In this document: in pieces, positions 2,908 to 43,744 of the stretch
Layout: each line of letters begins with the position of its first letter
How positions within the stretch are numbered: the first letter of the stretch is position 1
NCBI GenBank assembly: GCA_040386275.1
Contig: JAZKFU010000005.1
Coordinates: 7,378-71,377 of the forward strand
DNA from: Patescibacteria group bacterium
GTDB lineage: Bacteria; Patescibacteriota; Minisyncoccia; Phycocordibacterales; UBA918
Direction: 5' to 3'
DNA: 64,000 bases
Notes under the pieces: generated by a model
Databases searched by the model: none
What the model was told of the DNA's origin: nothing
The model's input: only the letters and a program-made list of their open reading frames with translations
Translations under genes and position numbers: made by a program

Positions 2908-4170
2908 TTACGTTGTGCGGAGGATGACGATATTCTTTTTTCCTCTTTTCAGTGGCTTAATCTCCCCTGCTGTAAGCGTAATGACGGCCTCTAAATTAGT
3001 AACTTTAACTCCGTCGTAGGTAATAGCACCTGACTCAATAAAGGTTCGCGCTTCTCGATTACTCGAAGCTAATCCTGAAGAAACTAATAGCTCAATCAGT
3101 GATGTTGGTGCAGTCACCGTAATAGCAGGTGCATTCGTTAAGAGGATATCTTTTTCTAACGGCGAAAGTGTAGTGGTATCTTTATCACTAAAGAGTATTC
3201 CGGCCACGTTGGCTACAGCGTTTGCTGTTTCAGACCCATGAACAAAGGCAGTAACGGCGAGCGCCAACTCTCGTTGCGCCCGGCGTTCACTTGGATGTTG
3301 CTTAAAATCAGCCACAATTGTTTCAATTTCTTCTAATGAAAGGAGTGTGAATAATTTTAAATAATCAACCACCCCTTCATCCCCTTGATTGAGCCAAAAT
3401 TGATAAAATGCAAACGGTGAAGTTTTTTCGGCATCAAGCCAAATCGCATTCCCCTCACTTTTACCAAACTTTTTACCGGTACTTTTATCTACCACCAAGG
3501 GAACGGTTATCGCATGAACTGTTTTTTGTTCTTTACGACGAATCAACTCTACTCCCGCTATAATATTCCCCCACTGATCTGAACCCCCCACCTGAACATC
3601 ACACCCGTGTTCTTTATTAAGGACTAAGTAGTCATACCCTTGTAGTAACGGGTAGGCAAATTCGGTATAAGAAAGTCCGACGTCACTTCCCAGTCTCGTC
3701 GCAATGGCATCTTTTTTTATTAATTCATTAACGGTAAAGTGTTTTCCAATATCTCGCAAAAAGGTTAAGAGACCTACTGAACCGAGCCAATCTTTATTAT
3801 TTACAAACGTAATCGGTACATTCTCTCCCCCAATTAACCGCTGGGCTTGGGCTTTAATTTTCTCAACATTACCATCAGTTATAGCTACGTCTTGTAACAC
3901 CCGCTCAGCATTAGGCTTGGGGTCACCAATCATACCCGTACCACCCCCCACCAAAAAAATAACTCGGTGTCCCGCCTGAGCTAAATGGTGCAACAACAAC
4001 CAAATCACCATATTACCCGCGTGTGCTGAGTCAGCACTCGGGTCAATCCCGTGGTAAATAGTCCGTTTAGGACCATCCAGAACATCGGCGAGCGATTCAC
4101 TGGTATGTTGATGAATAAATCCGCGTTTAGTTAAATCAGTAGATAACGACATAGCTATAATGTACCACAC
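2908..4170 (-). CDS. tyrS: Tyrosine--tRNA ligase
   Basis: Class I aaRS with KFGKS (KMSKS-type) motif, C-terminal S4-like domain, 420 aa. Confidence 0.93.
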   Translation of the reverse strand: MWYIIAMSLSTDLTKRGFIHQHTSESLADVLDGPKRTIYHGIDPSADSAHAGNMVIWLLLHHLAQAGHRVIFLVGGGTGMIGDPKPNAERVLQDVAITDGNVEKIKAQAQRLIGGENVPITFVNNKDWLGSVGLLTFLRDIGKHFTVNELIKKDAIATRLGSDVGLSYTEFAYPLLQGYDYLVLNKEHGCDVQVGGSDQWGNIIAGVELIRRKEQKTVHAITVPLVVDKSTGKKFGKSEGNAIWLDAEKTSPFAFYQFWLNQGDEGVVDYLKLFTLLSLEEIETIVADFKQHPSERRAQRELALAVTAFVHGSETANAVANVAGILFSDKDTTTLSPLEKDILLTNAPAITVTAPTSLIELLVSSGLASSNREARTFIESGAITYDGVKVTNLEAVITLTAGEIKPLKRGKKNIVILRTT

Positions 4171-29183: not shown

Positions 29184-29738
29184 ATGAAATTGCAGAACAA
29201 TGGTTTTACTTTACTGGAATTGCTAGTTGTTCTGACTATAATTGGAATGCTGGCTTCAATTGTGATTGCAAGTATTAGTGAGGCGCGCGAGAAAGGTCGC
29301 ATTGCAAAAGCACAGGCTGAACTGAACCAGTTATCGATAGCTATGGAACTACTCTTCAATGACACTGGATATTATCCATCTGGTGAACCAAACGTTACTA
29401 CGGTATGTGCCCGTACAATAGCGACAAATGAAATTCGTGCATCCTACCCACGTGCGGGACTTGTCTCCAATGGTCAAAGTTGGACTACCTGGAATGGACC
29501 ATACATTCGAATCGGGGACGACCCTTGGGGCACACCGTATTTTTTTGACAGCGATTACGAGTGTTCTCCTGAAGTGCTTGGTTGTAATGGTATCAATGAC
29601 AACGGGCAGCTTATCTCCTCGGTAATTATAAGTTGTGGCCCGAATAGAGACCTCACGGGTAGTGACGCGTCTGGAAATCTTCAGTGTGACAGTGATAGTG
29701 ATAATATTGTGTTTCGAATCTGCCGTAATGGTTACTAA
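29184..29738 (+). CDS. Type IV pilin / pseudopilin (prepilin-type N-terminal cleavage/methylation domain)
   Basis: MKLQNNGFTLLELLVVLTIIGMLASIV class III signal; Cys pairs in C-terminal domain. Confidence 0.82.
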   Translation: MKLQNNGFTLLELLVVLTIIGMLASIVIASISEAREKGRIAKAQAELNQLSIAMELLFNDTGYYPSGEPNVTTVCARTIATNEIRASYPRAGLVSNGQSWTTWNGPYIRIGDDPWGTPYFFDSDYECSPEVLGCNGINDNGQLISSVIISCGPNRDLTGSDASGNLQCDSDSDNIVFRICRNGY

Positions 29739-29865: not shown

Positions 29866-30462
29866 CTATAACTTTACTCGATATTGGAGGGCTTCGAATA
29901 AATGTTTGGGTTCTATTACGTGTATTCCCTCCAGGTCAGCTATTGTTTGCGCTACTTTTATTAAGCGGTGGTAACTGCGAGGTGAAAGATTTAGTTTAGC
30001 GGCAGAAGCTTTTAAGATGTCTTTTACTGGTGGAGTGAGTGTTATGACGTCGTCAATATCACGGCTCGACATGTGCGCGTTTACGGTAATGCCGCGGTTA
30101 TGTAATCGAGTCTCTTGCCGGTTGCGGGCGTTTACTATTTCTTTTCTAGCGTTTTGGGTCTCGCCTTTATTCATAGCTAGAGCGGTCAATGTGTCATACG
30201 GTATATGGGGTACTTCTATCCATAAGTCTATCCGATCTAAAATGGGACCTGATACTTTTTCCCGGTAAGTTTCTTTCATGGCGCGTGCTAAATCAGTAGT
30301 GCCATCATAACTCCCTCGGTATGGATTCATGGCTGCCACTAAAATAAAATCTGCGGGAAACAGCGCGGTGCCTTGTACTCGCGAAATACTAATAACTCTA
30401 TCTTCAAGCGGTTGACGTAACGCATCCAGTGAACGCCGATCAAATTCTGGGAATTCATCCAT
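29866..30462 (-). pseudogene. comM: comM/yifB (Mg-chelatase-like AAA ATPase) 3' fragment, C-terminal 198 aa, separated from its 5' part by a 12.4 kb insertion
   Basis: Starts MDEFPEFDRRSLDALRQPLE (ComM sensor/arginine-finger region); the matching N-terminal half is at 42794-43744. Confidence 0.85.
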
Positions 30463-30594
30463 AATGAGTGTCCCACAATTAGAATATTTTTTCTGTTAGT
30501 AATTCTCCCAGTACCTTGGTTCTTGACCTTGTATCTTTGACTCATTAAACCGGCTGCCAATTTCAGAAAGTCTTGCCACTTTTGTAAAGTGTTG

Positions 30595-30822
30595 TCATTC
30601 CTTTTTCTCTATTAAACTCCTTGTTACGAAAGGAGTCGTACTGATATCATAATTCTTTGAGAGCTGGATAAAGTGTTCTGGTAAAGGTAAAACGTTACCT
30701 CGTTTGGATGAATGAGTAAGCATAACACCGTGAAAAGAATATTCGTCAATATCAGATAAAAACACTATAGGGTGGCTACCTAAATGGTTATTTGTTCCAA
30801 AAACAATATCGCCTGCTTCCAT
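30595..30822 (-). CDS. Small protein with MazF/PemK-like N-terminal region (75 aa, possibly truncated toxin-fold protein)
   Basis: EAGDIVFGTNNHLGSHPIVFLSD...GVMLTHSSKRGNVLPLP resembles the GDIxxVDFxPxxGSE...RPxxVLS...TS core of MazF/Kid. Confidence 0.4.
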   Translation of the reverse strand: MEAGDIVFGTNNHLGSHPIVFLSDIDEYSFHGVMLTHSSKRGNVLPLPEHFIQLSKNYDISTTPFVTRSLIEKKE

Positions 30823-30832
30823 ACATTAACAA

Positions 30833-31576
30833 CTACTTAATATGTGGCAATACCCTAAGTCCATCTTGAATTGAAATTGCAGCCACATTTGTCCTTAATA
30901 GCTTTTTTGCAATAAGACTAATCGGTAATTCTCCTGTAATTACAGCAATAATCATAACGTACGTTAAGTAGTTGTTTTTGCCACCTACTCCACCCTTAGT
31001 TAAATCCTTACCTTTATAATAATATTTAACGTCTTCATTTAAAGCTATTGCATCTAGATACTGTAAAAAGACAATGGGTGGCACTCCGTAAATTAAAGGG
31101 ATTTTTGACGTTATATAGTCAATCACCATACTGTTTGGACAATATCTATAAATACGAGTGCCTGAGATTGTTAATTCATCTTTATGATCAAGCAGAAATG
31201 CTGAACGGAAAAGCAAAGCTCCAATTAATTCAACACAATATTTTTCTACTTTTGCTACTTCTTCTAAATCGCTTACTACATCACCAAATGTTGCCGCTGA
31301 TCCAAGATTAATATTATTCTTAAACAGGTCTGGTCTCATATCATGAGGATTTAGTGCACCGGTATACCCCGACTCGTTAGTTGATTCCTTACCAGGTTTA
31401 CCGAATGCTATTTTATAAACCCCATTTTCCCATATAGAGTGATATATTTTGCTTCTGAAAGTACCTGAATCCCAAGACATAGCTTCATTAATACGATTCA
31501 TTCTTTTTTCAAATACCGCTCGTTGACTAGGTGGATTTCCAACAATTTTCAGTATTTCGTTAAATTCAGGCACCAT
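30833..31576 (-). CDS. Hypothetical protein (247 aa), middle gene of GHKL-ATPase operon
   Basis: 10-nt spacing to downstream small gene, 132 nt to upstream GHKL gene; no recognisable motif. Confidence 0.5.
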   Translation of the reverse strand: MVPEFNEILKIVGNPPSQRAVFEKRMNRINEAMSWDSGTFRSKIYHSIWENGVYKIAFGKPGKESTNESGYTGALNPHDMRPDLFKNNINLGSAATFGDVVSDLEEVAKVEKYCVELIGALLFRSAFLLDHKDELTISGTRIYRYCPNSMVIDYITSKIPLIYGVPPIVFLQYLDAIALNEDVKYYYKGKDLTKGGVGGKNNYLTYVMIIAVITGELPISLIAKKLLRTNVAAISIQDGLRVLPHIK

Positions 31577-31708
31577 AAATATTGAGTTTGAGATTAAAGT
31601 TTGCTTCGAAACGAAGATATTTTATATTAGCATCATTGCTGTTTAATGGCTAAATGAAATACTAAAAATGACCTGCAAAGTGCAGGTCATTTTCAATAAA
31701 GTAAAGTA

Positions 31709-33259
31709 CTATCCTAGAAGTATTCTAAGATTGCTAGACATTGTAATAATCATGTCATTTAATAACTTACTTCTTAGTGCGTCAGTAGAATATTGCAACT
31801 TTGCTTCACCAATAACATAAACAAGAGCATGGACAGCATTTAGCAAGTCTTTATTGTCACTATTGTTAATTACAAATGTTTGGTAGAAAGGGTGGTCAAT
31901 GTTCCAGATAATAATAGTTAGTTTGCCTTCTTTCTCGACATCAATTATTGGACCTGCGGCAGTAAACGACGAAGTGCCAAACCTAACAATGTCACTAGAA
32001 AGCAATTGTTTACCAGTCTGAGAAGTTTTCTTTGGATTGGCGTCAGTCAAAAAACTAACAAGCTTTTTCTTTGTAATAGAAGAAGCGGTTGATTCTGGGG
32101 AGGCGATTTCAAGTAGCTTTGCAGAAGATTTAATATTTTTTTCTGCACTAATAAAATCATCTACCAGTTCCTCAGTACTTTTCTTAACAGAATTTTTATC
32201 TGTGCGATTTTTAATTGTTTCTACTGTATTGTAAGTACACTGATCAAGTAAATCAATAATTTTTTGCGTTGGATTGATATCGTGTTTTGAGAAGTTTATG
32301 CCCATTTGGTTATCTAATTCAGCACTAAATAACACTTCAATTCTCACACGATTTAACGCATTATGAACTTTAAACCTTCCAAGTTTGAGCCCTTTTGCAA
32401 TTTGTCGGTGGTTTCTAAGAATGTAGAATCCTTGATTTGTTTGATTAATTTTAAGACGAGTGTTTGTAGGCTTATCAAATTCAGGAATATGATAAATCTT
32501 TATTCTGATACTCTCTACAGCACCACTCTCGAGAGTGACGGGATATTTTTCGTCACTCAGTAATGTTGTGGTTTCTGCTTCGTTATATTGATCTACTAAT
32601 ATTCCGTCTACCCACATTGGGTCTTTGATAAAAACAGGTTCATTGTTAATGCTAATTTTGAGTCCAGCTCGCAAGAAATATCTGTAAATTTCACCAAAAT
32701 GGTTTGATAGAGTATCAATCAATTCTTTAGTATTTCTGATTGTGAGCTTATCACAATTACGTAGCACTAAAACTGTTCCTTGCTCACCAAGTCCAAATTC
32801 TTGACTAACTTCGATATGCGCTGGTGTTGCCAGACCACGTTGAAATTCAAAGGAGTTAGTCTTAATTACATCATCTAAGTCAAGAATCCCCGCAAAAGTT
32901 TGAGAGTTTTTCTTTTTAGTGTATATTTCGATTCTCTTTGTAAGAGATATTGAAGCTGTGACCAATCCAAGTCCAAATTTTCCTAAATCAGAACTATCTT
33001 CATGGTTAGTATCTGATCCAAGTCTGAGCGCCTGGCAAAGAACGTTGAAATCCATTCCTATTCCATCGTCAGATACGGCAATTGTAGTTTGTCCCTTTTC
33101 TTCAAGAACGTAAACCTTGATATTCTTTGCGTCTGCGTCGATACTATTGTCTAGTATATCTGCTATTGCTGTTTCATTTTTATAGCCACTGCTTCGTAGT
33201 GATGTCATCAATCTACCAGCATTTGGTGTATTTTCTGCCGTCGTAAATTTCTCGTTCAT
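31709..33259 (-). CDS. GHKL/Bergerat-fold ATPase (HATPase_c_3, MORC/Hsp90-like N-terminal domain), 516 aa
   Basis: Motif I IADILDNSIDADAKN, motif II DDGIGMD, motif III GKFGLGL. Confidence 0.8.
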   Translation of the reverse strand: MNEKFTTAENTPNAGRLMTSLRSSGYKNETAIADILDNSIDADAKNIKVYVLEEKGQTTIAVSDDGIGMDFNVLCQALRLGSDTNHEDSSDLGKFGLGLVTASISLTKRIEIYTKKKNSQTFAGILDLDDVIKTNSFEFQRGLATPAHIEVSQEFGLGEQGTVLVLRNCDKLTIRNTKELIDTLSNHFGEIYRYFLRAGLKISINNEPVFIKDPMWVDGILVDQYNEAETTTLLSDEKYPVTLESGAVESIRIKIYHIPEFDKPTNTRLKINQTNQGFYILRNHRQIAKGLKLGRFKVHNALNRVRIEVLFSAELDNQMGINFSKHDINPTQKIIDLLDQCTYNTVETIKNRTDKNSVKKSTEELVDDFISAEKNIKSSAKLLEIASPESTASSITKKKLVSFLTDANPKKTSQTGKQLLSSDIVRFGTSSFTAAGPIIDVEKEGKLTIIIWNIDHPFYQTFVINNSDNKDLLNAVHALVYVIGEAKLQYSTDALRSKLLNDMIITMSSNLRILLG

Positions 33260-33520
33260 ATTTTTTTGTTTTAGCCCCCAATGACGTGTGCCACCAGAGA
33301 ATTTTTAAAATAAAAATGCAGACTCCAAAGGATGCCTGCATAATACAAAATAGTATAGTGCTAGCTTCTTTGGTCCTCGATAACCATTGGCCACCAAGAT
33401 AAGAATGCTATTTTTATGTAAATTGATTCTAGCGCATGAATATTTATCTGTCAATTTGAATAGGAATGTGTTTGCTTAATATGTCAATTCTCTATATTAG
33501 TCGATTTTCTCACACAATAG

Positions 33521-33555
33521 AGGGACAATTACTAGAATAGCTGTCCCACATTTAG
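33521..33555. promoter_or_regulatory. Dyad-symmetric site GGGACA-N14-TGTCCCACATTTAG, near-copy of the island-terminal recombinase half-site
   Basis: GTCCCACATTTAG vs island left end GTCCCACAATTAG (12/13); inverted GGGACA arm 14 bp upstream. Confidence 0.55.
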
Positions 33556-33559
33556 TTAT

Positions 33560-34396
33560 TTATATAATAATTTTTCTTAATTTATATATAACTTCCTTCA
33601 TATTTTCACTATTTTTAGTGTTTTCTCTTAGTGTAAGCGCGAAAACAGAGTAGGTATGTACCGCAGTCATATTGATAGCAAACCGTATCATTCCCTCTGA
33701 TTGCTTAAAATGATCATCTGTTTCAGAGTGGTAAGAATCAATGGTACTTGGTCCTCCATGAACAAAAGAGGATAGTCTGGAGTAATCAGATACAAGGGCT
33801 GGAATAAAATCACTTCCTGGAGCCTTGTGTTCAGATAGATATCTAATGATATTCTTATAATCAAAGTTTGCTACCGCATCTTTTACTGATTGGTGCGAGG
33901 TATCCTTTAGGGAGGGTAAGTGCTTGATTATGTGTTGCCATACATTTAAGTTCTTTGATTCCAAGTCCATGATTTCAGACATTCGTTTTAGAGATATTCC
34001 ATACTGAACCTCTTCCCCAATTCTAACTAAACTTCGGTATTCATTTCCAGTTTCATCACTTTTTTCATTTGAGTATCTTGTCCAAATATAAGTAGCCTTA
34101 AGCCAATGTTCTAGAAAAGACCTGTACAGGACGTTCATGCTGTAATAATTGTCCTCTTTACCCAATTGAAGGAGGCCATTCTTAATCGTAGAAAGTCGCA
34201 CTATAAACTCCATTAAAACAATGAGGGTAACTTTGTCAGACCATCCTTTAATATGGTCATTTAATATCGGCATTCCAGTTTCAAATAGCTCAAAATAAGA
34301 GTTATTTACATCGTTAGCTGTATCTAGCCATTTAGAGAAAATTTCAAATTTATCGTCGTACTCTTTTTCCTTAGTACTTTGTTGATTCATCCTCAA
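33560..34396 (-). CDS. Hypothetical protein (278 aa) translationally coupled (ATGA overlap) to the serine recombinase
   Basis: 4-nt overlap with recombinase stop; no motif recognised. Confidence 0.5.
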   Translation of the reverse strand: MRMNQQSTKEKEYDDKFEIFSKWLDTANDVNNSYFELFETGMPILNDHIKGWSDKVTLIVLMEFIVRLSTIKNGLLQLGKEDNYYSMNVLYRSFLEHWLKATYIWTRYSNEKSDETGNEYRSLVRIGEEVQYGISLKRMSEIMDLESKNLNVWQHIIKHLPSLKDTSHQSVKDAVANFDYKNIIRYLSEHKAPGSDFIPALVSDYSRLSSFVHGGPSTIDSYHSETDDHFKQSEGMIRFAINMTAVHTYSVFALTLRENTKNSENMKEVIYKLRKIII

Positions 34397-36165
34397 ATGA
34401 TACTACTCATTCTAGGTTTGTACATTAGTGGGTTACTTTTTAAAAGATATTGCCTTCGCTGTGTTTCAGAGAGAATTTTTACGTGAAGTACTAATCGCAT
34501 TTTTTGGTCCACGTTTAGTTGTTTGCTAGTTGGTGATTTGATTGAGGATGGAAAGCGAAACACAACTTCTGCGTAATTGTCTTGAATAAATAGAGATATC
34601 CTTTCAATGAATAATCGTAGGATATATTGCTGTTCTTCGTAGCTCACATTAGCTAGTCGAGACTCGTACTGCTTAAACAACATCTTGATAATGTCATTTC
34701 TATTTACCAGCTCATCTGCTTTTAATAATGACTGGGTCAATTTATCTCTTTCGATAGTAAGAGTATTTACACGTTCCTTATTATCTCTAATTAGTTTTCT
34801 ATAGTCATCTTCTGCGAGATTCATTTCAGCAAATGCTAGCGCGATACGACCTTGTTGGTCTTTAAGGTTTTTAACTTGTTCCGTCAGTTCAGCAACTTTC
34901 TTTTCAATTCTTGCTTCGTTGCGGTTCTTAAAAGTGTACTCTTCAAGTCGAGGTAAAACGTTGTCTGGATTACTTAGAATCTCGACCAATGTTGTCCATA
35001 TAGGTATCAATCTAGTTTCTGCGCATTGACCCTCTGGATTGTGTTTTGAGTCACTCGAAGCAACTCTGTCTATGTCTTGAACATAAACATGGTAATACTT
35101 ACCTAATGTTGGTGTTTTTTGGTCTTTCTTTGGCTTCTGATATCCGCTCTGCAGTTTCTTGCCAGTGCTTCCCGAATAGAGCAAGCCAGAAAATAGATAT
35201 ATTCTTTTTTCATTACGCTTTTGCATTCGACGATTCATGTGTAGCTGTTCGATAGCCTGCGCGAACATTTCTTTTGAGATTATTGCTGGAACTGTTATTA
35301 AAACATGTTCAGAGCTATCTTTGTGAAAGCTTGTATCTGTAACAATTTGGGCTGTCCTTTGATTAGTTTTATATTTTCCAAAATACGTTTCACCAGTGTA
35401 TACCTCGTTAGCTAAAATTCGGTTGATTGTTCGTTTGTACCAGCTACCTTTCTTTTTTCTTGCGGTAATAGTTGTGTGTTTTGGGGTCGGTAGTTTGAGT
35501 TCAATCGCTCGCTTAGTAATTTCACGAAGTGAACATCTCTCATGTACCAACCATTCAAAGAATCTAACGACGACCTCTGCTTCCTCTGGGCATACAATCA
35601 ATTTCTTAGTTTCAGTGTTTACACGATAGCCGTATGGAGGTACTCCGGTAACCCATTTACCTTCTGCAGCAGCTCTTCGTTTACCTCCCATCATTCGGTC
35701 TCGTATAACTTCTCTCTCGTGTTCCGCAAAAGAACCTAGAATTTGTAGCATTAATCTACCGCTTGGAGTTGCTGTATCGAACGCTTCAGTCGAAGATTGA
35801 AACGCAACACCATACTCAACTAACTTGGCCAGTGCATTTAGTAGCTTACGTTGATTACGGAAGATACGGTCGAGCTTATAGACCAGCAGTAAATCAAATT
35901 CTTTATTTTCAGCCGCTTTAAAAGCTTTTGCTAATCCTGGTCGGGATTCAATTTCAAGAGTTCCTGAAAGACCCTCATCTCTAAATACATGCTCATCTAA
36001 TAGTGTGAAACCCTGACTGCTACAAAACTGTTTTAGTCTATCCTCTTGTACCTCCAGTCCGTAGTGCCCCTCTTTAGCCTGTTCTTCAGTTGATACACGC
36101 AAATAGATTGCCACTCGCTTGGTGGGTGCTATTGTGAAATTTAAGTTATTTAATTGCGTTTGCAT
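34393..36165 (-). CDS. Large serine recombinase (integrase), 590 aa
   Basis: Catalytic N-domain RVAIYLRVSTEEQ ... LLLVYKLDRIFRN, recombinase domain, Zn-ribbon/coiled-coil C-terminal extension. Confidence 0.9.
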   Translation of the reverse strand: MQTQLNNLNFTIAPTKRVAIYLRVSTEEQAKEGHYGLEVQEDRLKQFCSSQGFTLLDEHVFRDEGLSGTLEIESRPGLAKAFKAAENKEFDLLLVYKLDRIFRNQRKLLNALAKLVEYGVAFQSSTEAFDTATPSGRLMLQILGSFAEHEREVIRDRMMGGKRRAAAEGKWVTGVPPYGYRVNTETKKLIVCPEEAEVVVRFFEWLVHERCSLREITKRAIELKLPTPKHTTITARKKKGSWYKRTINRILANEVYTGETYFGKYKTNQRTAQIVTDTSFHKDSSEHVLITVPAIISKEMFAQAIEQLHMNRRMQKRNEKRIYLFSGLLYSGSTGKKLQSGYQKPKKDQKTPTLGKYYHVYVQDIDRVASSDSKHNPEGQCAETRLIPIWTTLVEILSNPDNVLPRLEEYTFKNRNEARIEKKVAELTEQVKNLKDQQGRIALAFAEMNLAEDDYRKLIRDNKERVNTLTIERDKLTQSLLKADELVNRNDIIKMLFKQYESRLANVSYEEQQYILRLFIERISLFIQDNYAEVVFRFPSSIKSPTSKQLNVDQKMRLVLHVKILSETQRRQYLLKSNPLMYKPRMSSII

Positions 36166-36168
36166 ATT

Positions 36169-36606
36169 TTATGTTTCTTCAAGTTCATCTGGACAGATAA
36201 TTAGTCGTCCGTCGTTAAAGTAAGTAGTGAATGGTCGATTAATACAGTGTATGTTTATGTCATTTTTCAGTAGCTCACCCACAAAATTGACGAGTCCACG
36301 GGTATTCTTACTGACTTCACTGAATCTCATAATTATGAGCACATCGTACTTTCTTGCGTGACCGGCAGAACGTGCGCCGTTTAATCCTGGAAGTTCATCG
36401 TAATTCTGTTCTTTGTAATTAATATGGTCTGTGAACTCGAGTATCGGTTTAATGTTTTGCTTTTGACAATACTGTTCAACAAACATTTTGTTTCGTCTTC
36501 CTCCATGCTGTTCTGCTCCATGAGTCATAAGTGAAAATGGTTTTTTCCATGCCCAGTAGTAAGTTGCGTAACGCACTGATTTGTTAGGCTTATTCTCCAT
36601 AAGCAT
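36169..36606 (-). CDS. Resolvase/invertase-like serine-recombinase catalytic-domain protein (145 aa, lacks HTH; possibly degenerate)
   Basis: YDVLIIMRFSEVSKNTRGLVNFVGELLKNDINIHC matches DVLxVxKLDRLxRS...LxxxGVxF core; N-terminal RVS(T)xxQ motif divergent. Confidence 0.45.
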   Translation of the reverse strand: MLMENKPNKSVRYATYYWAWKKPFSLMTHGAEQHGGRRNKMFVEQYCQKQNIKPILEFTDHINYKEQNYDELPGLNGARSAGHARKYDVLIIMRFSEVSKNTRGLVNFVGELLKNDINIHCINRPFTTYFNDGRLIICPDELEET

Positions 36607-36854
36607 TTTTGTCTACTGAAACAACAATCATTCCTTCCTCAATTCTTCGTTCAAACACTATTCCCTCAGGTGATTCATATTCGTGTAATATACGGTGGAG
36701 CAAGTCATTTTCCGATATACACTTAGATAGCCGTTTTAATCTATGATTTGTTGTTTTCATAATGCCATATAGTTGACTATATGGCTGATTAAATACGGCT
36801 CCTTCTAAATGTACATAGGACGCCTGTTATTCATCCCTCTGATTTACCTGGCTT

Positions 36855-37838
36855 TTAGTGAACTAATTTGTACTCTCTTTTCCCATTCTTAGTGTCATAT
36901 ACAATTTTTTGTTCACTAACAAGTAATCTTATAGCTTCTCCAGCATTGCGTACTCCACACTTTGATTCTCTAACGATTCTTTCCTGAAGAATCATTCTAG
37001 GCAAAGATTCTTCGTTCAATATTTTTAAACAAAATGTTTTTGCAGTATCAACTTTAAGGATATTTTTGTCCGAATGTCCTCCATATTCTAAGGTCAAACC
37101 CTTATCATCTTCGTTTTGTATAAGGAATAATTTGATTGGCTCCGATTTTGGACCACACCGATTTTTTTCCTGTTGCAGAATTATTGTGTTTATCCCGTCA
37201 AGAGTTTTACCATCGATACTTATTGCAGAATCTGCACGGCCTAATATTGCCGAAGAACCTCTCGTGTTCTGTCCAGATGTACCAATTCCTTTTCTGCTGT
37301 GATGAACGAAAATTACAGAACATCCAGCTAATGCAAGTTGCTGTAACGCGGTCATCACTTTCTGCATTTCACTTGAACTATTTTCTTCACAGTCGTGAAC
37401 TGCAGCAAAGGGGTCGAGGATGAGACATTTTATATTGTTATCCATTATGTATTGCACAATCTCATCAATCCAACTCGGATTATCGAGCTTAAAACCATTC
37501 TGGGAAAGAAAATTCAGCGGTAAATTTTTGGAAAACCCAAGTAACTTACAGCGTTGTCTCATCTGCCAGATCCCTGATTCTTCGTCAATTATAAGAACAT
37601 TTCCTTGCTTAACATCAATTTGACCTACGAATTTATCACCACTTGCAACAGCTCTAGCTATTTCTAGTACAACCCAAGTTTTGCCCATACCAGGATGGCC
37701 ATATAGATATGAGATTCCGAATTCTGGAATAAGTTGATTTACTAAATATGAAGGAGCGGAGGATTCTGGTAATTCCATCAGCTCTTTAAGTGTGCAGGTC
37801 CCTTTATAGTAGATGGGGCTACTTTCAGTTTTACTCAT
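36855..37838 (-). CDS. RecA-fold AAA_25/RepA-like ATPase (plasmid/phage replication-associated)
   Basis: Walker A YGHPGMGKTW, Walker B CLILDPFAAV, 327 aa. Confidence 0.7.
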   Translation of the reverse strand: MSKTESSPIYYKGTCTLKELMELPESSAPSYLVNQLIPEFGISYLYGHPGMGKTWVVLEIARAVASGDKFVGQIDVKQGNVLIIDEESGIWQMRQRCKLLGFSKNLPLNFLSQNGFKLDNPSWIDEIVQYIMDNNIKCLILDPFAAVHDCEENSSSEMQKVMTALQQLALAGCSVIFVHHSRKGIGTSGQNTRGSSAILGRADSAISIDGKTLDGINTIILQQEKNRCGPKSEPIKLFLIQNEDDKGLTLEYGGHSDKNILKVDTAKTFCLKILNEESLPRMILQERIVRESKCGVRNAGEAIRLLVSEQKIVYDTKNGKREYKLVH

Positions 37839-38098
37839 AGTCTTCCTGAAATTCGAGTATCTTGTAAAAGTGCGACAGTCTTTGAAAAACCACTCAGAAT
37901 CTCTTGAATATCCTCCGTCCCATTCAACACTCGATTATTCATAGTAAGAGAAATTCTGTCACCTTCTCTTGTCTGGTAATAAAGGATGTTCGTATCTCCA
38001 ACGCTGTCTAATCTAACGTAACTTTCTTTCATACTTTTGCTTATTTCTAAGCACCCCGTCCTGTTCAGGAGATTTCGCATCTGAGAGTAACTTCTCAA
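37835..38098 (-). CDS. Hypothetical small protein (87 aa), overlaps upstream gene by 4 nt
   Basis: Operon position only. Confidence 0.35.
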   Translation of the reverse strand: MRSYSQMRNLLNRTGCLEISKSMKESYVRLDSVGDTNILYYQTREGDRISLTMNNRVLNGTEDIQEILSGFSKTVALLQDTRISGRL

Positions 38099-38179
38099 AC
38101 AATATTCTCCATTCCGTTTCTAAATTACCGAAGTGCATACGCACAAGGATAATTTAAAAACGATAATCCGTCGGTTAAT

Positions 38180-38983
38180 TTACTTTTTACCACTCAATCC
38201 ACGTCTTGAAATAAAGCTTTTGTTGTCACTAAGTGGTAAAACTCTTAGCCATATGTCACTTTTATCAATTTTTATTTTCAAGGGAATGCGCTTAGTATTT
38301 AGTTGGCGTTGAATTTCTCGAGTTACAAGTGTTAGTTTATTGAGGTTTAAATTTTCTTTGTCATATACAAATTCATGATTCTTCCAGTCAAGTTTCGATA
38401 TTAGACGTTCTAGGGGCATTTCTTCATAAACTTTTACACCAGCTTCCATTTTTGCAGGCTGACTTAGTAAAATTTTGAGTAGCTGTTTAGCTGTTTTGCG
38501 AGGTGAGTACTCTTCGCCAAGCGGCACTTTTATCGTAAGTGTGTCATCATTAGTAAAAATAAATTGCACCTCAGTTTGGCTTATAGATGCACTGGATACT
38601 GTGTCCTCGCTAGAGTTAAGAATTAAGCATAGCCTTTCGTATAAATAGCTACCCCATTCAACTAATTCCTTTTGTGCTTGTGATTGATTTTGTAATTCGT
38701 AATTTATTGTTCCTGGAGTATAAGTAAATGAATTACTACAATAAGCAGCAAAGCCAATGAAATCTTTCACAAAATCCCAAACAGCATAATTGGCTCCGAC
38801 TGGCGAAAGTTTGCTTGAAAATGATGTCGTTAGAAGTTGAGTAGTTTTGTCTAAAAAATTGACATTTCGTTGAGTTACCATTCCATCATTCAAATTTACA
38901 AGCAAATCCTGAAATTCAGTTTCAGAGAAAATAACGTCAGTTGTTAAATTGTAATGCTCTGAGACTATATTCTGCTTCTTCAT
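38180..38983 (-). CDS. Hypothetical protein (267 aa), island cargo
   Basis: ORF only. Confidence 0.45.
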   Translation of the reverse strand: MKKQNIVSEHYNLTTDVIFSETEFQDLLVNLNDGMVTQRNVNFLDKTTQLLTTSFSSKLSPVGANYAVWDFVKDFIGFAAYCSNSFTYTPGTINYELQNQSQAQKELVEWGSYLYERLCLILNSSEDTVSSASISQTEVQFIFTNDDTLTIKVPLGEEYSPRKTAKQLLKILLSQPAKMEAGVKVYEEMPLERLISKLDWKNHEFVYDKENLNLNKLTLVTREIQRQLNTKRIPLKIKIDKSDIWLRVLPLSDNKSFISRRGLSGKK

Positions 38984-39259
38984 ATTACCAGCATATCAAT
39001 CTCATTTATTATTGCAAAAGTGCAATCTATTTAATAGATTGCACTTTTGCACAAATTTACTACGTAGCACGCCTTTTGCGTGATATGTAGTAAATCGCTT
39101 ACTTTGAATTGATTTAAATCATCAAGTGATTACCTGACTTTATTAGAGAGATTTAACCAGATTACATTTCTACTATCTAGATGTAGTAAATACCTTAATG
39201 ACACTTTTCGTGTCATCTAGTGTATTTCCAGGGCTCAAGACCATGGCTCGATACAACAC

Positions 39260-39853
39260 CTATCGGCCAAATCTAGCTTTGCAATCGTCTACTTTTTCTT
39301 TAATTCTTTTTTCTACCAGACCATCTGCCCTGAAAGACTCTGCGTCTTTTAGACAAAGTGTGTAAAGCGTTGCTTTGTCGTTTACTCTAAAGATACCAAT
39401 ATCCTTAACGTCAGAAAAGGAAATACTGGAAGTAGATTGGACTTGAGGTGACAGAACTGTTGTGTCACCACTCACAGCGTAAACTTCGTTGTTAGATATT
39501 AAATATACATATCCAGCATTTGGTGAAGCGATAGCTCCTATCCAAACTATTACTCCATCTCCAATCGGATTTTGATAGACGTCAATATACGACTTACCGA
39601 TACCCAATCTGTCCCAGAAAGCATCGTCGATTGTGGCATAGACTTTCTCAATAGCAGCTTCTCTTTCCTTTTTATTAGTTATTCTTACAACTGGATTTGC
39701 TTCAGGTAGATTCCAATTCTCAGTATCGAGTACTTCAGCTACTGGTTTTTGTTCTGGTGTAAACATACCCTTAAAGAAAAGTATTCCTAGTATGAACAAA
39801 ACCACTACTAGAATTACTTTGCGGTTCTTACTTTGATTGGTCGCTCCTTCCAT
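39260..39853 (-). CDS. Membrane-anchored hypothetical protein (start inferred at MEGATNQSK)
   Basis: N-terminal TM KVILVVVLFILGILFF. Confidence 0.45.
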   Translation of the reverse strand: MEGATNQSKNRKVILVVVLFILGILFFKGMFTPEQKPVAEVLDTENWNLPEANPVVRITNKKEREAAIEKVYATIDDAFWDRLGIGKSYIDVYQNPIGDGVIVWIGAIASPNAGYVYLISNNEVYAVSGDTTVLSPQVQSTSSISFSDVKDIGIFRVNDKATLYTLCLKDAESFRADGLVEKRIKEKVDDCKARFGR

Positions 39854-40062
39854 ATTAAAAGGCTTAACTTTGTAAGCGCAAGGAGTAACAAAAAACTCCC
39901 CGCGAGATGGTGGCATGGCCACCCACTGTCAGTTTCCCAACAGGGCCTACAAAGCATCCCTCGCGAGGAGGTTTTTACTTTGTAGGACTTGCGGCCATAC
40001 CTCTATCAAGAGATAAAGGGTTAGGCCATTAATATTCAGTTGTCAGCTAATAGTATATCTTT

Positions 40063-41442
40063 TTAAACATTAGTAAATATATTAGGACCAGCAAAGGTAT
40101 ACTCTGCTAAAGATTTAAGAACACTTTTAGAAACCACAACATTTATTGGCATTTCAACAAGTTTTTTTGAATAATAAAAATAGAAGCCATTATGCACACC
40201 TTTTTCAAGTGCGCCTTCAACATCTTTTTTCCTTATTTCTAAAGTCTTCTCACGTAAGGTTTTTGTATCAAACCCATTTTCACTAAGGTACTCACTAATT
40301 TTATTTCTGGACACCAGATATAGCTGTGCGTGTGTAATGTCCGAATGCTTAATGTCCCACTCTTTTTTAGCTCTTAGCCAGACAATCATATAATACTCCG
40401 TTACCTTATCAGTGTCAGTAAACCAGCCCTCAATGACGTCACCTTTGTTTATAAAACTTAACTCAAAGGCAAATGTTGGCAAATCCTTATTTATATAATG
40501 CGTAAGTGTCTTTTCGTCTACTGTTACGTTCTTCAAATCTTTATATGTAAAATGAATATCAATTCCTTTCATTTGTGTTTCCCGGTCGAAATAACGTTTG
40601 ATTTTTGCACCAATCTTAGGATAAACATTGTTATCTAAATAGGTAACAACTTCATTATCGACTTCCATGTCTCGAGTTCGATTTCCATTCATATATCAAC
40701 TCACAAAATCCTTAAGCTTATCTGGACTTGTCCTCTCGAGATAGCGACGAATCACTTGAGTCATATATGAATTTTTAAGGCGAAAAGCTCTAATCTCAGC
40801 AGGACTTTCACTAAAAGGCTGTGTGGTTTTCGATTTTCTATCGCTGGGGTCTTTAAATGTTCCTCCGTGTTTAGGACATAGTGTGAGGTATTTATGATCT
40901 GACTGGTGGATATGATGTGCGTTGCCAGATTTAATCTTATCTAAAATTAGTAGATAGTCATCATTTAGTTCATTTAAGATAGTGTCGTCCATCCTCCATA
41001 TAAAGACGTATGGGATTATGTATTCGGAACGCGGTTTTGATTCGTCATGTACATACCAAACGAAAAGAATATTCTTGTTCTTTTTTACAAGCGATGACTG
41101 ACTAATCTGAGTATTTTTTGATTCCTCGTTGTAGTTGATTATATTTAGTGAAAGGGGCTCTTTAACTCTCAATTTTCCATCCTTACCCATTTTTAATGCA
41201 CTACTTTTTATCTCCACACCTAAATGCGGTATATCAGCTCCGGCTATATTATTTCTAGACAGACCAAATACTCCTTGTTCAACAAGGTCACCAACTCCAG
41301 CCTTGGAAGACACCCTACTAACATCGTCACTTTTCAGGATTTCTTCAGTTATCTCTTTGAGAGACTTACCTTCAATATAGAATTTAGCGATACGTTCAAG
41401 TTCTTCAATAGACTTAATATCTGCAATGTTGACTAAACCCAT
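40063..41442 (-). pseudogene. Sau3AI/MutH-family GATC restriction endonuclease, single 460-codon frame interrupted by one in-frame TGA (at + coords 40696-40698)
   Basis: N-part has MutH catalytic motif DIPHLGVEIKS and KAGVGDLVEQGVFG; the 248-aa and 209-aa ORFs are in the same frame separated by TGA-TAT; combined length matches two-domain Sau3AI. Confidence 0.7.
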
Positions 41443-41529
41443 ATATTTGATCTTTTATAAAATTGTTGTTGAATAGTAAGAAATCCTTGATCTTTAGCTG
41501 CTGCAATGATAAGATACTAGCATCATATT

Positions 41530-42801
41530 TTGTCAAACACCATGAGTTCAAAAAAAATTAGAGTAGTTGAATTATTTGCTGGCGTAGGTGGTTTTCGCCT
41601 AGGTTTAGAAGGACACGAGGGAAATAAAAAGCCTCACCACGATACATTTAAAACCGTCTGGTTTAATCAATGGGAACCCGCAACTAAAAGACAACATGCA
41701 CACGAAACGTATGTTCAACGATTTGGCTCTATTGATGAATACACCAATTACGATATCGCTAAAGTGGTAGATAAAGTACCAGAGCATGACTTATTGGTTG
41801 GCGGTTTTCCGTGCCAGGATTATTCGGTTGCTAAGAATCTCTCTGCGTCTGGTGGCATTGAAGGTAAGAAGGGTGTTCTATGGTGGTCAATCTACGATAT
41901 CCTTAAACTTAAAGGTGACAAAGCGCCAAATTACATAATGCTTGAAAACGTTGATAGATTGTTAGTTTCACCAGCTAAACAAAGAGGACGTGACTTTGCA
42001 ATCATCTTGTCATGCTTAAACTCACTCGGCTACGTGGTTGAGTGGCGTGTTATTAATGCTGCAGAGTATGGAATGCCACAACGTCGAAGACGTATATTCA
42101 TATTGGGATATAAAAAGGGTTCAAATATTGAGAAGAGATTCAAGAAGAGTACACCACTAGATTGGCTATCAAAGGACGGTGTAGCACAACAGGCATTTCC
42201 AGCTACGATTCTTAAAAGCGTAGATTCAATCGAGATAAATACAGACCCACTTGAAGTTTCAAAAAGCTTTAATATTGAAAGACCAGCTACGCCACCGTTC
42301 GGAAATGCAGGAGTAATGTGTGACGGCACTGCATTCACCACCAGAGTTGAGTCTGCATACACTGGTAAGTATTCCAAATTAGGGGATTTTACTCTGGCAG
42401 ATAAAGATGTGCCTGAAGAGTACTACATAACTGATGCAAAAGATTTAGAACGATGGAATTATCTGAAAGGTGCTAAAAATGAAGAAAGAAAGGCAGCTAG
42501 TGGATTTCAATTTATCTATAAAGAGGGTGCTGTTGGCTTTCCAGATGCCTTAGATAAGCCTTCTCGCACAATCATTACAAGTGAAGGTGGGTCTACACCA
42601 TCCAGATTTAAGCATGTGATTCAAACAAAGAAGGGATTACGTAGACTAACACCAATTGAACTGGAAAGATTATGTATGTTTCCTGATTATCACACCGTAG
42701 GACATAGTGACACTAAAAGAGCTTTCTTTATGGGCAATGCTTTAGTTGTGGGTGTAATTGATGGGTTCGGGAAAGCCATTTCTGAATTTCATTCTAAATA
42801 G
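41530..42801 (+). CDS. DNA (cytosine-5)-methyltransferase (Dcm family), cognate MTase of the Sau3AI-like system
   Basis: Motif I VELFAGVGGF, motif IV GGFPCQDYS, motif VI IMLENV; 423 aa. Confidence 0.9.
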   Translation: MSNTMSSKKIRVVELFAGVGGFRLGLEGHEGNKKPHHDTFKTVWFNQWEPATKRQHAHETYVQRFGSIDEYTNYDIAKVVDKVPEHDLLVGGFPCQDYSVAKNLSASGGIEGKKGVLWWSIYDILKLKGDKAPNYIMLENVDRLLVSPAKQRGRDFAIILSCLNSLGYVVEWRVINAAEYGMPQRRRRIFILGYKKGSNIEKRFKKSTPLDWLSKDGVAQQAFPATILKSVDSIEINTDPLEVSKSFNIERPATPPFGNAGVMCDGTAFTTRVESAYTGKYSKLGDFTLADKDVPEEYYITDAKDLERWNYLKGAKNEERKAASGFQFIYKEGAVGFPDALDKPSRTIITSEGGSTPSRFKHVIQTKKGLRRLTPIELERLCMFPDYHTVGHSDTKRAFFMGNALVVGVIDGFGKAISEFHSK

Positions 42802-43744
42802 CAAACTGTGGGACTGGTTTCATAAATAAAACCCCTTTGTGCGCTAGCGTAACTTCGCCCGGTTTGGGGTGTGTGCCGCCACCCACTAAGGCTGTGTGTG
42901 ACGCGGTGTGGTGCGGTGTCCGGAACGGAGGCATCGAATTCAGTAAGTTCTCGGCATTGCCTGCCAATGAATGAATTGATCCGACTGCCAAAGTTTCCTC
43001 TCGAGACAGAGGCGGCAAGATACCCTGAAAAGCTCGGGCTAACATGGTTTTACCCGTGCCCGGTGGACCGACCAGCATAACATTGTGTCGTCCAGCGGCA
43101 GCAATAATCAGGGCTCGCTTGGCCGACTCTTGCCCTTTAATATCTTCTAAGAGTATCGCGCTGTCGTACCAATGGTTTTGGATTACCGTGGTGGGAGTGT
43201 CTGTAATTTTTTTATGATCAGGATGCGTGTGGTCGATATGAAAAATAACTTCTTGTAAATTTTTGGCTGCACAAATACTCACGCCTTCAATCATAGCTGC
43301 CTCTGCTTGATTTTCAAAGGGTACGATGACCTCGGTAAATCCATGCTGCTTGGCAGTTTGTACCATGGATAATACTCCTCGTACGGCACGGAGTTCCCCA
43401 CTTAACCCCAGCTCTCCAATAAAGATTCGTTTAGTAGCATTACTACTTATGAGTCCAGCGGTCAATAAATACGCAATGGCAATCGGTAAATCAAAGAGTG
43501 GTCCCTCTTTTTTTAAATCGGCGGGAGCTAGAGAAATTACAATTTTCTGGTTCTTACTTTTAGGAGAATCATACCCACTATGTTTGATAGCGGTACTGAC
43601 TCGGTCTTTAGCTTCTTCAATGGCCTTGCCTGCTAATCCCACAATTGAAAATGAATGCAGTCCTAAACTTAAGTCGGCTTCAATACTAACGACAGTTCCC
43701 CCAAGTACGTGTCCTTGCACTGTATATACTTGGGTGATACTCAT
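42794..43744 (-). pseudogene. comM: comM/yifB 5' fragment (N-terminal 308 aa + 8 island-encoded residues)
   Basis: Walker A LVGPPGTGKTMLA, ends ...HKGVLFM-KPVPQFAI* where KPVPQFAI is read from island DNA. Confidence 0.85.

Follow-up and report, generated by a model that had tools for sequence, protein, structure and literature searches.

Mobile elements that disrupt competence genes, comM in particular, are well documented in Proteobacteria (PMC4774983, PMC12378983, PMC11441513), and competence genes are reported to be over-represented among the targets of large serine recombinases (LSRs; Durrant et al, 2022, PMC10083194). ComM has a known role in transformation in Haemophilus, Vibrio, and Acinetobacter (PMC12378983). 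Here, we analyze a 64,000-nucleotide stretch of DNA (hereafter the window) from the metagenome-assembled genome (MAG) of an uncultured, Paceibacteria-like member of the Patescibacteria, in which a 12,361-bp integrative element carrying an LSR gene is inserted into comM (yifB), thereby splitting the gene of this AAA+ ATPase. This element and related ones contain, besides the attachment site in use, further attP-like sites with other central dinucleotides, which we propose to serve entry at different target codons. Dependence on DNA uptake is presumed for organisms of the Candidate Phyla Radiation (CPR), whose mobile elements have rarely been described.

Among known systems, the Listeria prophages A118 and phi10403S in comK share with this element the LSR, an intragenic attB in a gene of the competence pathway, the conservative 2-bp crossover, the lack of long direct repeats, and a precise empty site. 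In contrast, the host here belongs to the Patescibacteria, the target is the Walker B codon of comM, and no virion genes were detected. Compared with competence-gene LSR elements in general, the present family carries a multi-core attP array, of which we found no description in the papers on those elements or in the literature searched. The AbaR and Tn7-like islands of Acinetobacter and the tyrosine-integrase mobile elements of Aggregatibacter, Mannheimia, Francisella, and Pseudomonas have the same target gene and equally variable cargo (PMC4774983, PMC11441513, PMC12378983), and the benefit proposed for them, blocking of transformation-mediated curing, is the one considered here. However, those elements rely on Tn7-type transposition or integrases rather than on an LSR, reside in another phylum, and use another insertion codon than the exactly conserved one of the present family.

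SCCmec (CcrAB/CcrC, rlmH/orfX) likewise carries an LSR inside the element, several att-like sites, and a second resolvase-family open reading frame (ORF) beside the recombinase. Yet SCC arrays repeat one core, whereas every core differs here, and the second ORF lacks the catalytic serine here, while CcrA is active. Engineered orthogonal att sites (phiC31, PMC3936721; Bxb1 core variants, PMC10083194) also combine one integrase with core-matched pairs, but these are laboratory constructs, whereas the present set is apparently natural and matched to codon variants of one residue. Finally, actinomycete AICE-like and integrated-plasmid-like elements and phage satellites resemble the element in size (6-15 kb), in the pairing of an integrase with a Prim-Pol/AAA_25 or Rep_O-type module, and in that no virion or conjugation genes were detected; they differ in that no satellite hallmarks, transfer gene (FtsK-like Tra), or capsid-related genes were found here.

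The island itself is an ordinary event of a known type. In the searched literature, whose coverage is incomplete, natural attP arrays are not described, all reports of multiple attP sites concern engineered systems, and we found no description of comM-targeting elements or CPR serine recombinase islands in Patescibacteria. The multi-attP architecture is the new part, provided that it has not been described beyond the literature searched.

Results and Discussion

The element splits comM at the Walker B motif

A preliminary description of this DNA, made from the letters alone, had interpreted two ORFs of the window as the halves of one comM gene, separated by an island of about 12.4 kb. Both halves and the two junctions are located as follows (related loci carry L numbers and related proteins P numbers throughout; half-sites are scored with a position weight matrix, PWM):

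42794-43744, minus strand: comM′ N-terminal fragment (MES2749168.1), 316 aa, comprising 307 native residues, the crossover Met, and the eight island codons KPVPQFAI
29866-30462, minus strand: comM C-terminal fragment, 198 aa, whose start is the native Met codon regenerated at attR
42807-42838, minus strand: attL (B half, AT, P′ half), ...AAAGGGGT TTTATTT AT GAAACCA GTCCCACA, with AT at 42822-42823 and a P′ half-site PWM score of 16.4
30446-30477, minus strand: attR (P half, AT, B′ half), TGTGGGAC ACTCATT AT GGATGAA TTCCCAGA, with AT at 30461-30462 and a P half-site PWM score of 19.3

In Pfam, the N-terminal fragment matches ChlI and Mg_chelatase positions 2-118, and the C-terminal fragment matches Mg_chelatase positions 112-205 and Mg_chelatase_C. 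As these spans are consecutive, both fragments are parts of one ComM/YifB AAA+ protein. The N-terminal fragment ends in ...GVLF-M-KPVPQFAI followed by a stop. The junction sequences on the minus strand are ...GGGGTTTTATTTATG/AAACCAGTCCCACAGTTTGC... and ...AATTGTGGGACACTCATTATG/GATGAATTCCC..., and joining 43744-42821 to 30459-29866 yields an in-frame protein of 505 aa containing HKGVLFMDEFPEF. This rejoined protein passes the YifB model TIGR00368 (501.6 bits, cut-off 362.4) and stays below the cut-off of the enterobacterial equivalog NF007365 (391 bits, cut-off 530). The element comprises window positions 30463-42821 plus the 2-bp core and interrupts the gene at VLF/MDE. Its G+C content is 0.33-0.40, compared to 0.42-0.46 in the flanks.

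The natural empty site is available for comparison. A search with the rejoined protein retrieved an intact 505-aa allele (P0001) that differs by two substitutions (99.6% identity), and comM is uninterrupted in L001 (NCBI GCA_040384005.1) and L002 (Logan SRR26324618), where it has the same neighbors as in the window: a 611-615-aa protein, DksA/TraR, comM, a pilin-like gene, and LysM-M23. In blastn, L001 1-3526 aligns to window 46334-42821 with 99.2% identity and L001 3522-7870 to window 30464-26116 with 99.9%, the two alignments overlapping by exactly TTATG (5 bp). Occupied and empty comM alleles therefore both exist among strains that are >99% identical, and the intact gene in a near-identical strain demonstrates that the insertion is real.

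Most of the preliminary description holds at this resolution. The fragments belong to one gene and rejoin seamlessly at VLF/MDEFPEF, the N-terminal fragment acquires eight island-encoded codons, the junctions are placed to the base (12,361 bp by att geometry and empty-site alignment), and the element was inserted by an LSR, with attL and attR carrying P and P′ arms but no long direct repeats. The search for an intact comM in related genomes, which it had proposed, recovered the empty site in L001 and L002 with flanks of 99.2-99.9% identity. The in-frame joining stands, whereas the rejoined protein falls two substitutions short of full identity to the intact allele.

Directly downstream of comM lies a type IV pilin-like gene (window 29184-29738, plus strand) with an N-terminal methylation motif and T2SSG, and the comM-then-pilin order is kept in the empty-site locus L001. 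A transformation-related neighborhood is possible.

Crossover occurs at a central dinucleotide within the Walker B codon

Oriented by comM, all junctions share a common geometry, in which two 8-bp arms flank a 2-bp core at a distance of 7 nt on either side. For the window, attP is reconstructed as TGTGGGAC ACTCATT AT GAAACCA GTCCCACA, and the AT-core attP site as a whole reads TGTGGGACACTCATTATGAAACCAGTCCCACA. Its arms are the terminal inverted repeats already noted in the preliminary description, TGTGGGAC at 30470-30477 and GTCCCACA at 42807-42814 (comM strand); both 8-mers are perfect, and 7 nt separate either of them from the central AT. The motif CATAA, pointed out before, is indeed present at both junctions (30460-30464 and 42821-42825), but only its AT belongs to the crossover. 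In L008, attL and attR share AT alone, and AT occupies the exact center between the arms; thus, crossover takes place at the central dinucleotide, as known from characterized serine integrases, and the 5-bp identity in the window is partly incidental. The empty-site alignment of L001 ends at attL.

The core corresponds to codon positions 1-2 of the hydrophobic Walker B residue in GVLF-[M/L/V]-DEFPEF. The core in use is AT in the window, L008, L013, L016, and L024, TT in L014, L019, L021, and L023, and CT in L015, L017, L020, and L101. In LSR recombination, polarity is set by nothing but the central dinucleotide, which must match between the partners (Ghosh et al, 2003, cited in PMC10083194). 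For phiC31, six orthogonal attP/attB pairs with different central dinucleotides have been reported (PMC3936721).

One integrase family targets a single comM codon

The recombinase is encoded in the middle of the island:

34393-36165, minus strand: large serine recombinase (integrase; MES2749159.1), 590 aa; PF00239 1.2e-38, PF07508 3.8e-17, PHROG 95 integrase 5e-99

It displays the features of a serine integrase, namely a catalytic Ser domain (PF00239, residues 18-171), PF07508 (residues 193-308) together with the corresponding length, and short dyad att sites around a 2-bp crossover. In its motif YLRVSTEEQ, R23, S25, and Q29 are invariant among 23 relatives. The zinc ribbon PF13408 is unmatched in this integrase clade and matched in relatives at ~35% identity. 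Membership in the SCCmec Ccr group was rejected, since CcrB, CcrC, and CcrA give 133, 121, and 52 bits against cut-offs of 900, 900, and 700.

About 300 relatives of the integrase were found, nearly all in Patescibacteria. We fetched the contexts of integrases at 87, 80, 72, 61, 59, 56, 55, 44, 42, 41, 39, and 38% identity. Wherever the contig was long enough, the checked relatives were flanked by comM, the N-terminal fragment ending in ...GVLF and the C-terminal fragment starting with [M/L]DEFPEF, while LSRs below about 35% identity were not located in comM. With 12 integrase lineages (38%-87% identity) at the same codon, comM targeting is clearly non-random and a trait of the integrase family. 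A search with the truncated N-terminal fragment identified 6 ComMs truncated at this residue among the top 120 clusters (P0244-P0252 range); from these clustered proteins, the share of the closest comM clusters occupied at this codon can be roughly put at ~5%.

An integrase scan of GTDB representative genomes yielded only distant LSRs (Brevibacillus, a deltaproteobacterium, Chthoniobacter) and is thus uninformative on the family, and an IMG/VR search yielded only relatives at 32-34% identity. A metagenome scan with the integrase alignment relied on generic LSR motifs, and 6 of its 80 loci are family members (L019-L024); the remaining loci served as negative control for att-site counts.

The family has in common only the integrase, the AAA_25/Prim-Pol module, and the small resolvase-like ORF, while the cargo is wholly different. 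In relatives, it consists mainly of defense systems, including type IIG and type III restriction-modification (R-M) systems, PvuII-type R-M, CBASS (CD-NTase and Cap15), and the toxin-antitoxin SocA/Panacea. Defense cargo lies at L015 12424-13959, L016 12591-13289, L101 10841-11539, and L008 3727-5013. By gene content, the comM elements would act as small defense islands in Patescibacteria.

At attL, a difference exists between the near-identical loci L012 (4018-6951) and L013 (3760-6951). The P′ arm GAAAACA GTCCCTCA is present in L013 and deleted in L012; in the latter, the comM N-terminal fragment is fused in frame to a type IIG methylase/nuclease ORF, giving 977 aa. The L012 copy is probably locked in the chromosome.

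Internal attP-like sites form ordered arrays in which no core recurs

In addition to the AT site in use, the window contains a second, intact site of the same geometry:

33519-33550, minus strand: internal attP-like site with CT core, TGTGGGAC AGCTATT CT AGTAATT GTCCCTCT, PWM scores 20.5 and 20.0

A mismatch-tolerant search of the window for full sites gave 2 hits against 0.11 expected, a number reached by 0 of 100 shuffles, and the arms of the CT site score as high as those of the used AT site (19.3/16.4). The CT site is orthologous to CT sites in nine other elements, one of which, in L101, is in use. L101 represents the mirror case, with CT at the outer junctions and an intact internal AT site.

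The half-site weight matrix was derived from the sites. Individual true half-sites score 12-22, while in 43 kb of host DNA no full site exceeds 4.1. When 130 kb of element DNA were rescanned with the PWM, 20 full internal sites were detected, compared to 0 in 154 kb of host DNA and 0 in the 722 kb surrounding distant LSRs. The arrays are listed below in int direction, square brackets marking the used site:

Window: CT-[AT]
L008: CT-TT-[AT]
L013: CT-GT-(weak TT)-[AT]
L014: CT-GC-GT-[TT]-AT
L016: CT-GT-TT-[AT]
L017: [CT]-TT
L021: CT-[TT]
L022: CT-TT
L024: CT-TT-[AT]
L101: [CT]-AT

All elements are compatible with the single circular order CT-GC-GT-TT-AT, and no core repeats within one element (P=5e-6, shuffling). 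Sites preceding the used one are found at the attR end and sites following it at the attL end, as in L014, L101, L017, and L021, which is the placement predicted by circular permutation of a multi-site circle. The arms are conserved with 1.4-1.6 bits per column compared to 0.27 in the flanks. Moreover, sites with the same core are orthologous across elements, irrespective of whether they are used or internal, with a spacer identity of 8.1/14 versus 5.5/14 (p=2e-13). Thus, the internal TT site of L016 (TAAAACA TT AAAGTCA) is almost identical to the used TT site of L014, and the internal AT site of L014 to the used AT site of L013.

In L022 (37%-identity clade), the CT and TT sites (3488-3582) are 63 nt apart and reside inside the 3′ end of the 624-aa integrase ORF, where they encode the repeated peptide L[WR]D..[AV]K.[RC]PTI. 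Consequently, use of either site would change the integrase C-terminus.

The cores match the codons at the crossover residue

In the 120 closest intact ComMs, the crossover residue is M in 96, V in 15, L in 4, A in 3, and C in 1. Codons for M, V, L, and A start with AT, GT, CT/TT, and GC, which is exactly the set of array cores. With the exception of GC, every core has T in second position, like the codons of hydrophobic residues.

The multi-attP model predicted that GT sites are used in hosts with Val at this position, and a GT junction was found afterwards. The island-encoded tails of truncated ComMs reveal which arm was joined. In P0252, the tail is F/VVSVPL, and its DNA (L104) reads ...CCTGTTT GT AGTATCT GTCCCTCT, a GT-core attL whose half-site scores 18.0. 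P0249 and P0251 have the tail F/IRTV[PL]Q, which corresponds to the P′ arm of the internal AT site of L101; hence, that site is used in relatives. Altogether, AT, CT, TT, and GT are each observed as a real junction in some lineage.

AT-core insertions are found in both orientations. As AT is self-complementary and the core is the sole determinant of polarity, insertion in either direction is expected for this core. In L008-L011 (integrase 80% identical), the internal gene order is the same but flipped relative to comM. On the comM-N side, these elements have the arm AT AATGGAT GTCCCACA ATTAGAA; its homologue in the window is the arm on the comM-C side, read as reverse complement (AT AATGAGT GTCCCACA ATTAGAA). 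Similarly, the tail of P0245 (F/IKCVPQ) matches the reverse complement of the P arm of the L014-type AT site, which suggests a second flipped AT insertion. Since non-palindromic cores cannot insert flipped without a change of codon class, it is the occurrence of flipped AT insertions, rather than an association between orientation and core, that carries information.

A proposed multi-attP element and its alternatives

An integrative comM element with an ordered multi-attP array that covers codon variation is the best overall explanation and, in our assessment, a likely one. Judging from sequence comparison, the arrays probably provide alternative attP sites, by which a single integrase can accommodate variation of the crossover codon. 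The LSR would recombine attP with attB across the Walker B codon of comM, the crossover falling on codon positions 1-2. Array members would share the integrase-binding arms and differ in the central dinucleotide; because cores must be identical in attP and attB, each member fits one codon class, so that ATG/ATH, CTN, TTR, GTN, and GCN could be covered. One element could in this way enter comM alleles that differ at the crossover codon, and the integrated copy would be a circular permutation of the element set by the site used. In the window, the AT site was used and the CT site at 33519-33550 is still intact. The helicase/Prim-Pol module may replicate the excised circle, whereas excision would need a directionality factor, for which the ORF with a Ser-to-Ala resolvase domain is a candidate.

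From established knowledge of ComM, the split would inactivate the branch-migration helicase of transformation. By analogy with AbaR (PMC11441513), the element could profit from this by blocking transformation-mediated curing, and selfish anti-competence behavior, as proposed in the preliminary description, is a reasonable inference. Beyond that, we lean toward the fuller view that a widespread Patescibacteria family evolved a natural orthogonal attP set (AT, CT, TT, GT, GC) for entry into comM at Met/Ile, Leu, Val, and Ala codons, in either orientation with AT, and that the LOOT RNA and the dead resolvase paralogue described below are parts of the same machine.

Several observations weigh against arrays of alternative working sites. 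The PWM was derived from the junction-arm pattern, and its sensitivity is biased to the 55-87% clade; with this PWM, L015 and L019 have no internal sites. The GC core was sighted once and never in use. In L104, no TT/AT site follows the GT attL within the 1.6 kb available, and near-identical elements (>95% nt) integrated via different array members were not found. L102 (7669-7816) contains a complete CT site followed by a strong P half-site with TT (TGAGGGAC ACTAATT TT) and 28 nt, GATACTCCAGTCTTCGTGCGCAAAGGCG, up to the contig end, and these 28 nt resemble neither comM nor a P′ arm; this end may represent a junction with a different target or a degenerate site. A first impression of L102 as a free form was dropped, since the contig ends in this half-site and the 28 nt. 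Further, no capsid or conjugation genes for cell-to-cell movement were found.

It is conceivable, if rather unlikely, that each lineage has a single working attP and that all other sites are relics of host switches or attP duplications, either young or harmlessly bound. For every element, a single integrated configuration is observed, part of the internal sites are weaker (3.8 and 9.1 in the PWM for TT in L013), and the lack of detectable internal sites in L015 and L019 would fit as well. However, internal arms are conserved as well as used ones, as the scores of the CT and AT sites in the window illustrate, conservation falls sharply beyond the 32-bp frame, and the same ordered set is kept from 37% to 87% integrase identity. 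The relic reading is further weakened by the lack of repeated cores within elements and by internal sites of one lineage being the used ones of a sister lineage. Tandem accretion, in which internal sites are junctions with captured integrase-less cassettes as in composite SCCmec or CIME/ICE, is very unlikely. Genes do lie between some sites (HATPase, 247 aa, and 75 aa in the window; 267 and 220 aa in L101; two blocks in L016), and CcrB and CcrC are the best NCBIfam matches of the integrase, but their 133 and 121 bits are far below the 900-bit cut-offs. Moreover, accretion would yield identical cores at all junctions, whereas the cores always differ, and the segment between a CT and an AT core cannot excise alone; in L008, L014, L022, and L024, sites are only 36-96 nt apart without genes between them, and in L022 they even lie inside the int ORF. 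We give as little credit to the idea that the additional sites never undergo crossover and merely bind integrase for synaptic architecture, like the res subsites II and III of Tn3-type systems, or for gene regulation. The arrays are positioned just downstream of int, and for small serine resolvases clusters of dimer-binding sites beside the crossover site are the rule. Against this, every site is laid out as 8+7+2+7+8 like the crossover site, the distances between sites range from 36 nt to 3 kb, other lineages demonstrably use orthologues of the CT, TT, AT, and GT sites for crossover, and we know of no LSR that needs accessory sites.

A further alternative concerns the role of the element and is compatible with multiple attP sites: precise excision could restore comM under some condition, leaving the host conditionally competent, as in the switch-like elements phi10403S in Listeria comK, SPbeta in spsM, skin in sigK, and the XisF fdxN element. 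LSR excision is conservative and the rejoined gene is intact and 99.6% identical to the free allele, the reading frames of both comM fragments remain open, strains that are >99% identical include both occupied and empty alleles, and there is a weak NCBIfam match to XisF. Nevertheless, we consider such a regulatory switch improbable. An exact IMG/VR search with the reconstructed attP 32-mer and the conserved 24-mer of the CT site had zero matches, neither a free circular form nor a circular junction was recovered, and L101, when checked for circularity, had no terminal overlap. The cargo is defense-like and variable, as in selfish islands, and the L012 copy lacks the P′ arm and is probably locked in place. 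Lastly, the source is a MAG, and the island might be a chimeric join. This possibility is negligible, since the same junction geometry recurs at the same codon in >12 independent assemblies (NCBI, JGI, ENA, Logan) and the structure of the junctions is exactly as expected for att sites of an LSR.

With this element, the conflict of mobile elements with natural transformation is seen to reach into the CPR. If the multi-attP element is correctly understood, nature has already built an engineered design, one serine integrase with several core-orthogonal sites, and has found a previously undescribed way round the strict core-matching rule that widens the host range. The family would then be a model for site-specific elements that track variation of their target site, and would offer a compact toolkit of a 590-aa integrase, 32-40-bp sites, and 4-5 cores. 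The palindromic AT core provides a natural test of the polarity rule for central dinucleotides. In addition, integrases with an attB in a conserved gene could serve as genetic tools for Patescibacteria, of which there are now very few, and LOOT gains a genomic home for an orphan RNA motif and hence a route to its function.

Gene content of the island

Proteins of the window are named "Patescibacteria group bacterium" at NCBI, and their homologues belong to Paceibacteria, Nomurabacteria, Uhrbacteria, and Kaiserbacteria. Besides the integrase, the island contains:

41530-42801, plus strand: intact C5 cytosine DNA methyltransferase (Dcm type), 423 aa; PF00145 full-length, E=6e-57; TIGR00675 219.8 bits, cut-off 100.65; PADLOC MTase_II 2e-156
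40063-41442, minus strand: interrupted Sau3AI/MutH-like type II restriction nuclease, ORFs of 248 aa (40696-41442) and 209 aa (40063-40692); PF02976
39909-40027, minus strand: LOOT RNA (Rfam RF03000), 72.2 bits, gathering score 46.4; model positions 1-121, full-length
38180-39922, minus strand: two ORFs without assigned function, 220 aa (predicted membrane segment) and 267 aa
36855-37838, minus strand: AAA_25/DnaB-like replicative helicase-type ATPase (replication module), 327 aa; PF13481 3e-28; PHROG 906/3228/239 primase-helicase
36169-36606, minus strand: homologue of the resolvase catalytic domain with the nucleophile Ser changed to Ala, 145 aa; RYATYYW; PF00239 E=5e-6
33560-34396, minus strand: DUF5677-like ORF, cargo, 278 aa; PF18928 E=3e-4, under cut-off
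30595-33259, minus strand: segment between the CT and AT sites, with a GHKL/HATPase_c_3 ATPase of 516 aa, a 247-aa ORF, and a 75-aa ORF

The internal CT site, the LOOT RNA, and the catalytically dead resolvase-like ORF are absent from the inventory of the preliminary description. Its claim of an imported R-M system holds for the Dcm methylase, which is intact, but not for the Sau3AI-like nuclease, which is split by an in-frame TGA. Both nuclease ORFs are in the same frame with one TGA and one codon between them. The nuclease scores 176 bits against NF040973 (cut-off 300), matching profile positions 3-221 of 475; thus, the frame is broken after codon 248, and an intact two-domain MutH-like nuclease (~475-490 aa) is not encoded. 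The break at window 40693-40698 reads ...GTG AGT TGA TAT ATG.... The in-frame TGA could be a nonsense mutation, the methylase then being an orphan, or be subject to read-through or recoding.

The AAA_25 ATPase is ~40% identical to its counterparts in L008, L015, L016, L019, L101, and L102, which are fused or adjacent to Prim-Pol. The 220-aa and 267-aa ORFs (38180-39922) had zero Pfam, PHROG, or PADLOC matches, and the former is weakly similar to one ORF of L008. The GHKL ATPase matches PF13589 (1.5e-26) and PADLOC MzaB (1e-25); assignment to the MZA anti-phage system was rejected, given 107 bits against 850 for NF041932 and neighboring ORFs without PADLOC matches.

Among island ORFs of at least 60 aa, several of them unannotated, Pfam and PHROG identified no virion or packaging genes; conjugation, transfer (e.g., FtsK-like Tra), satellite hallmark, or capsid genes were likewise not detected in the island. 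With neither virion or packaging genes nor a close relative in IMG/VR, identity as a prophage is not supported. From its genes, the element looks like an integrative replicon with defense-type cargo rather than an obvious prophage, and is probably self-replicating.

LOOT RNA and the resolvase-like ORF

The LOOT RNA occurs in the window and in seven related elements, where the seven further copies score 66-86 bits against the gathering score of 46.4:

L008 5063-5179
L014 6982-7097
L016 5585-5703
L101 3573-3689
L019 991-1106
L015 5519-5638
L024 3629-3750

It is always located on the integrase strand, 3-6 kb upstream of int, and absent from empty-site loci; it is therefore a backbone part of the element family. 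Apart from int, LOOT is the sole stretch conserved at the nucleotide level with L101 and L008. In the literature searched, with incomplete coverage, we found no description of the genomic context of this RNA.

Copies of the resolvase-like ORF lie directly upstream of int in three relatives:

L008 9208-9624
L101 7846-8262
L102 3817-4275

In the alignment, the window, L008, L101, and L102 have R[VY]ATY.W where the integrase has RVSTEEQ. In L012, L015, L016, and L017, the same position holds an unrelated ORF of 59-77 aa with the motif DYLIADEIQRIxSLSREEL. By position and sequence, the Ser-to-Ala ORF and the 59-77-aa ORF are candidate recombination directionality factors; alternatively, the former is a candidate accessory factor.

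Between the helicase gene and the resolvase-like ORF, the intergenic stretch 36718-36815 shares 77% identity with L102 3603-3699, while the genes beside it are only ~40-46% identical at the protein level. This stretch may be an origin, a promoter, or an RNA.

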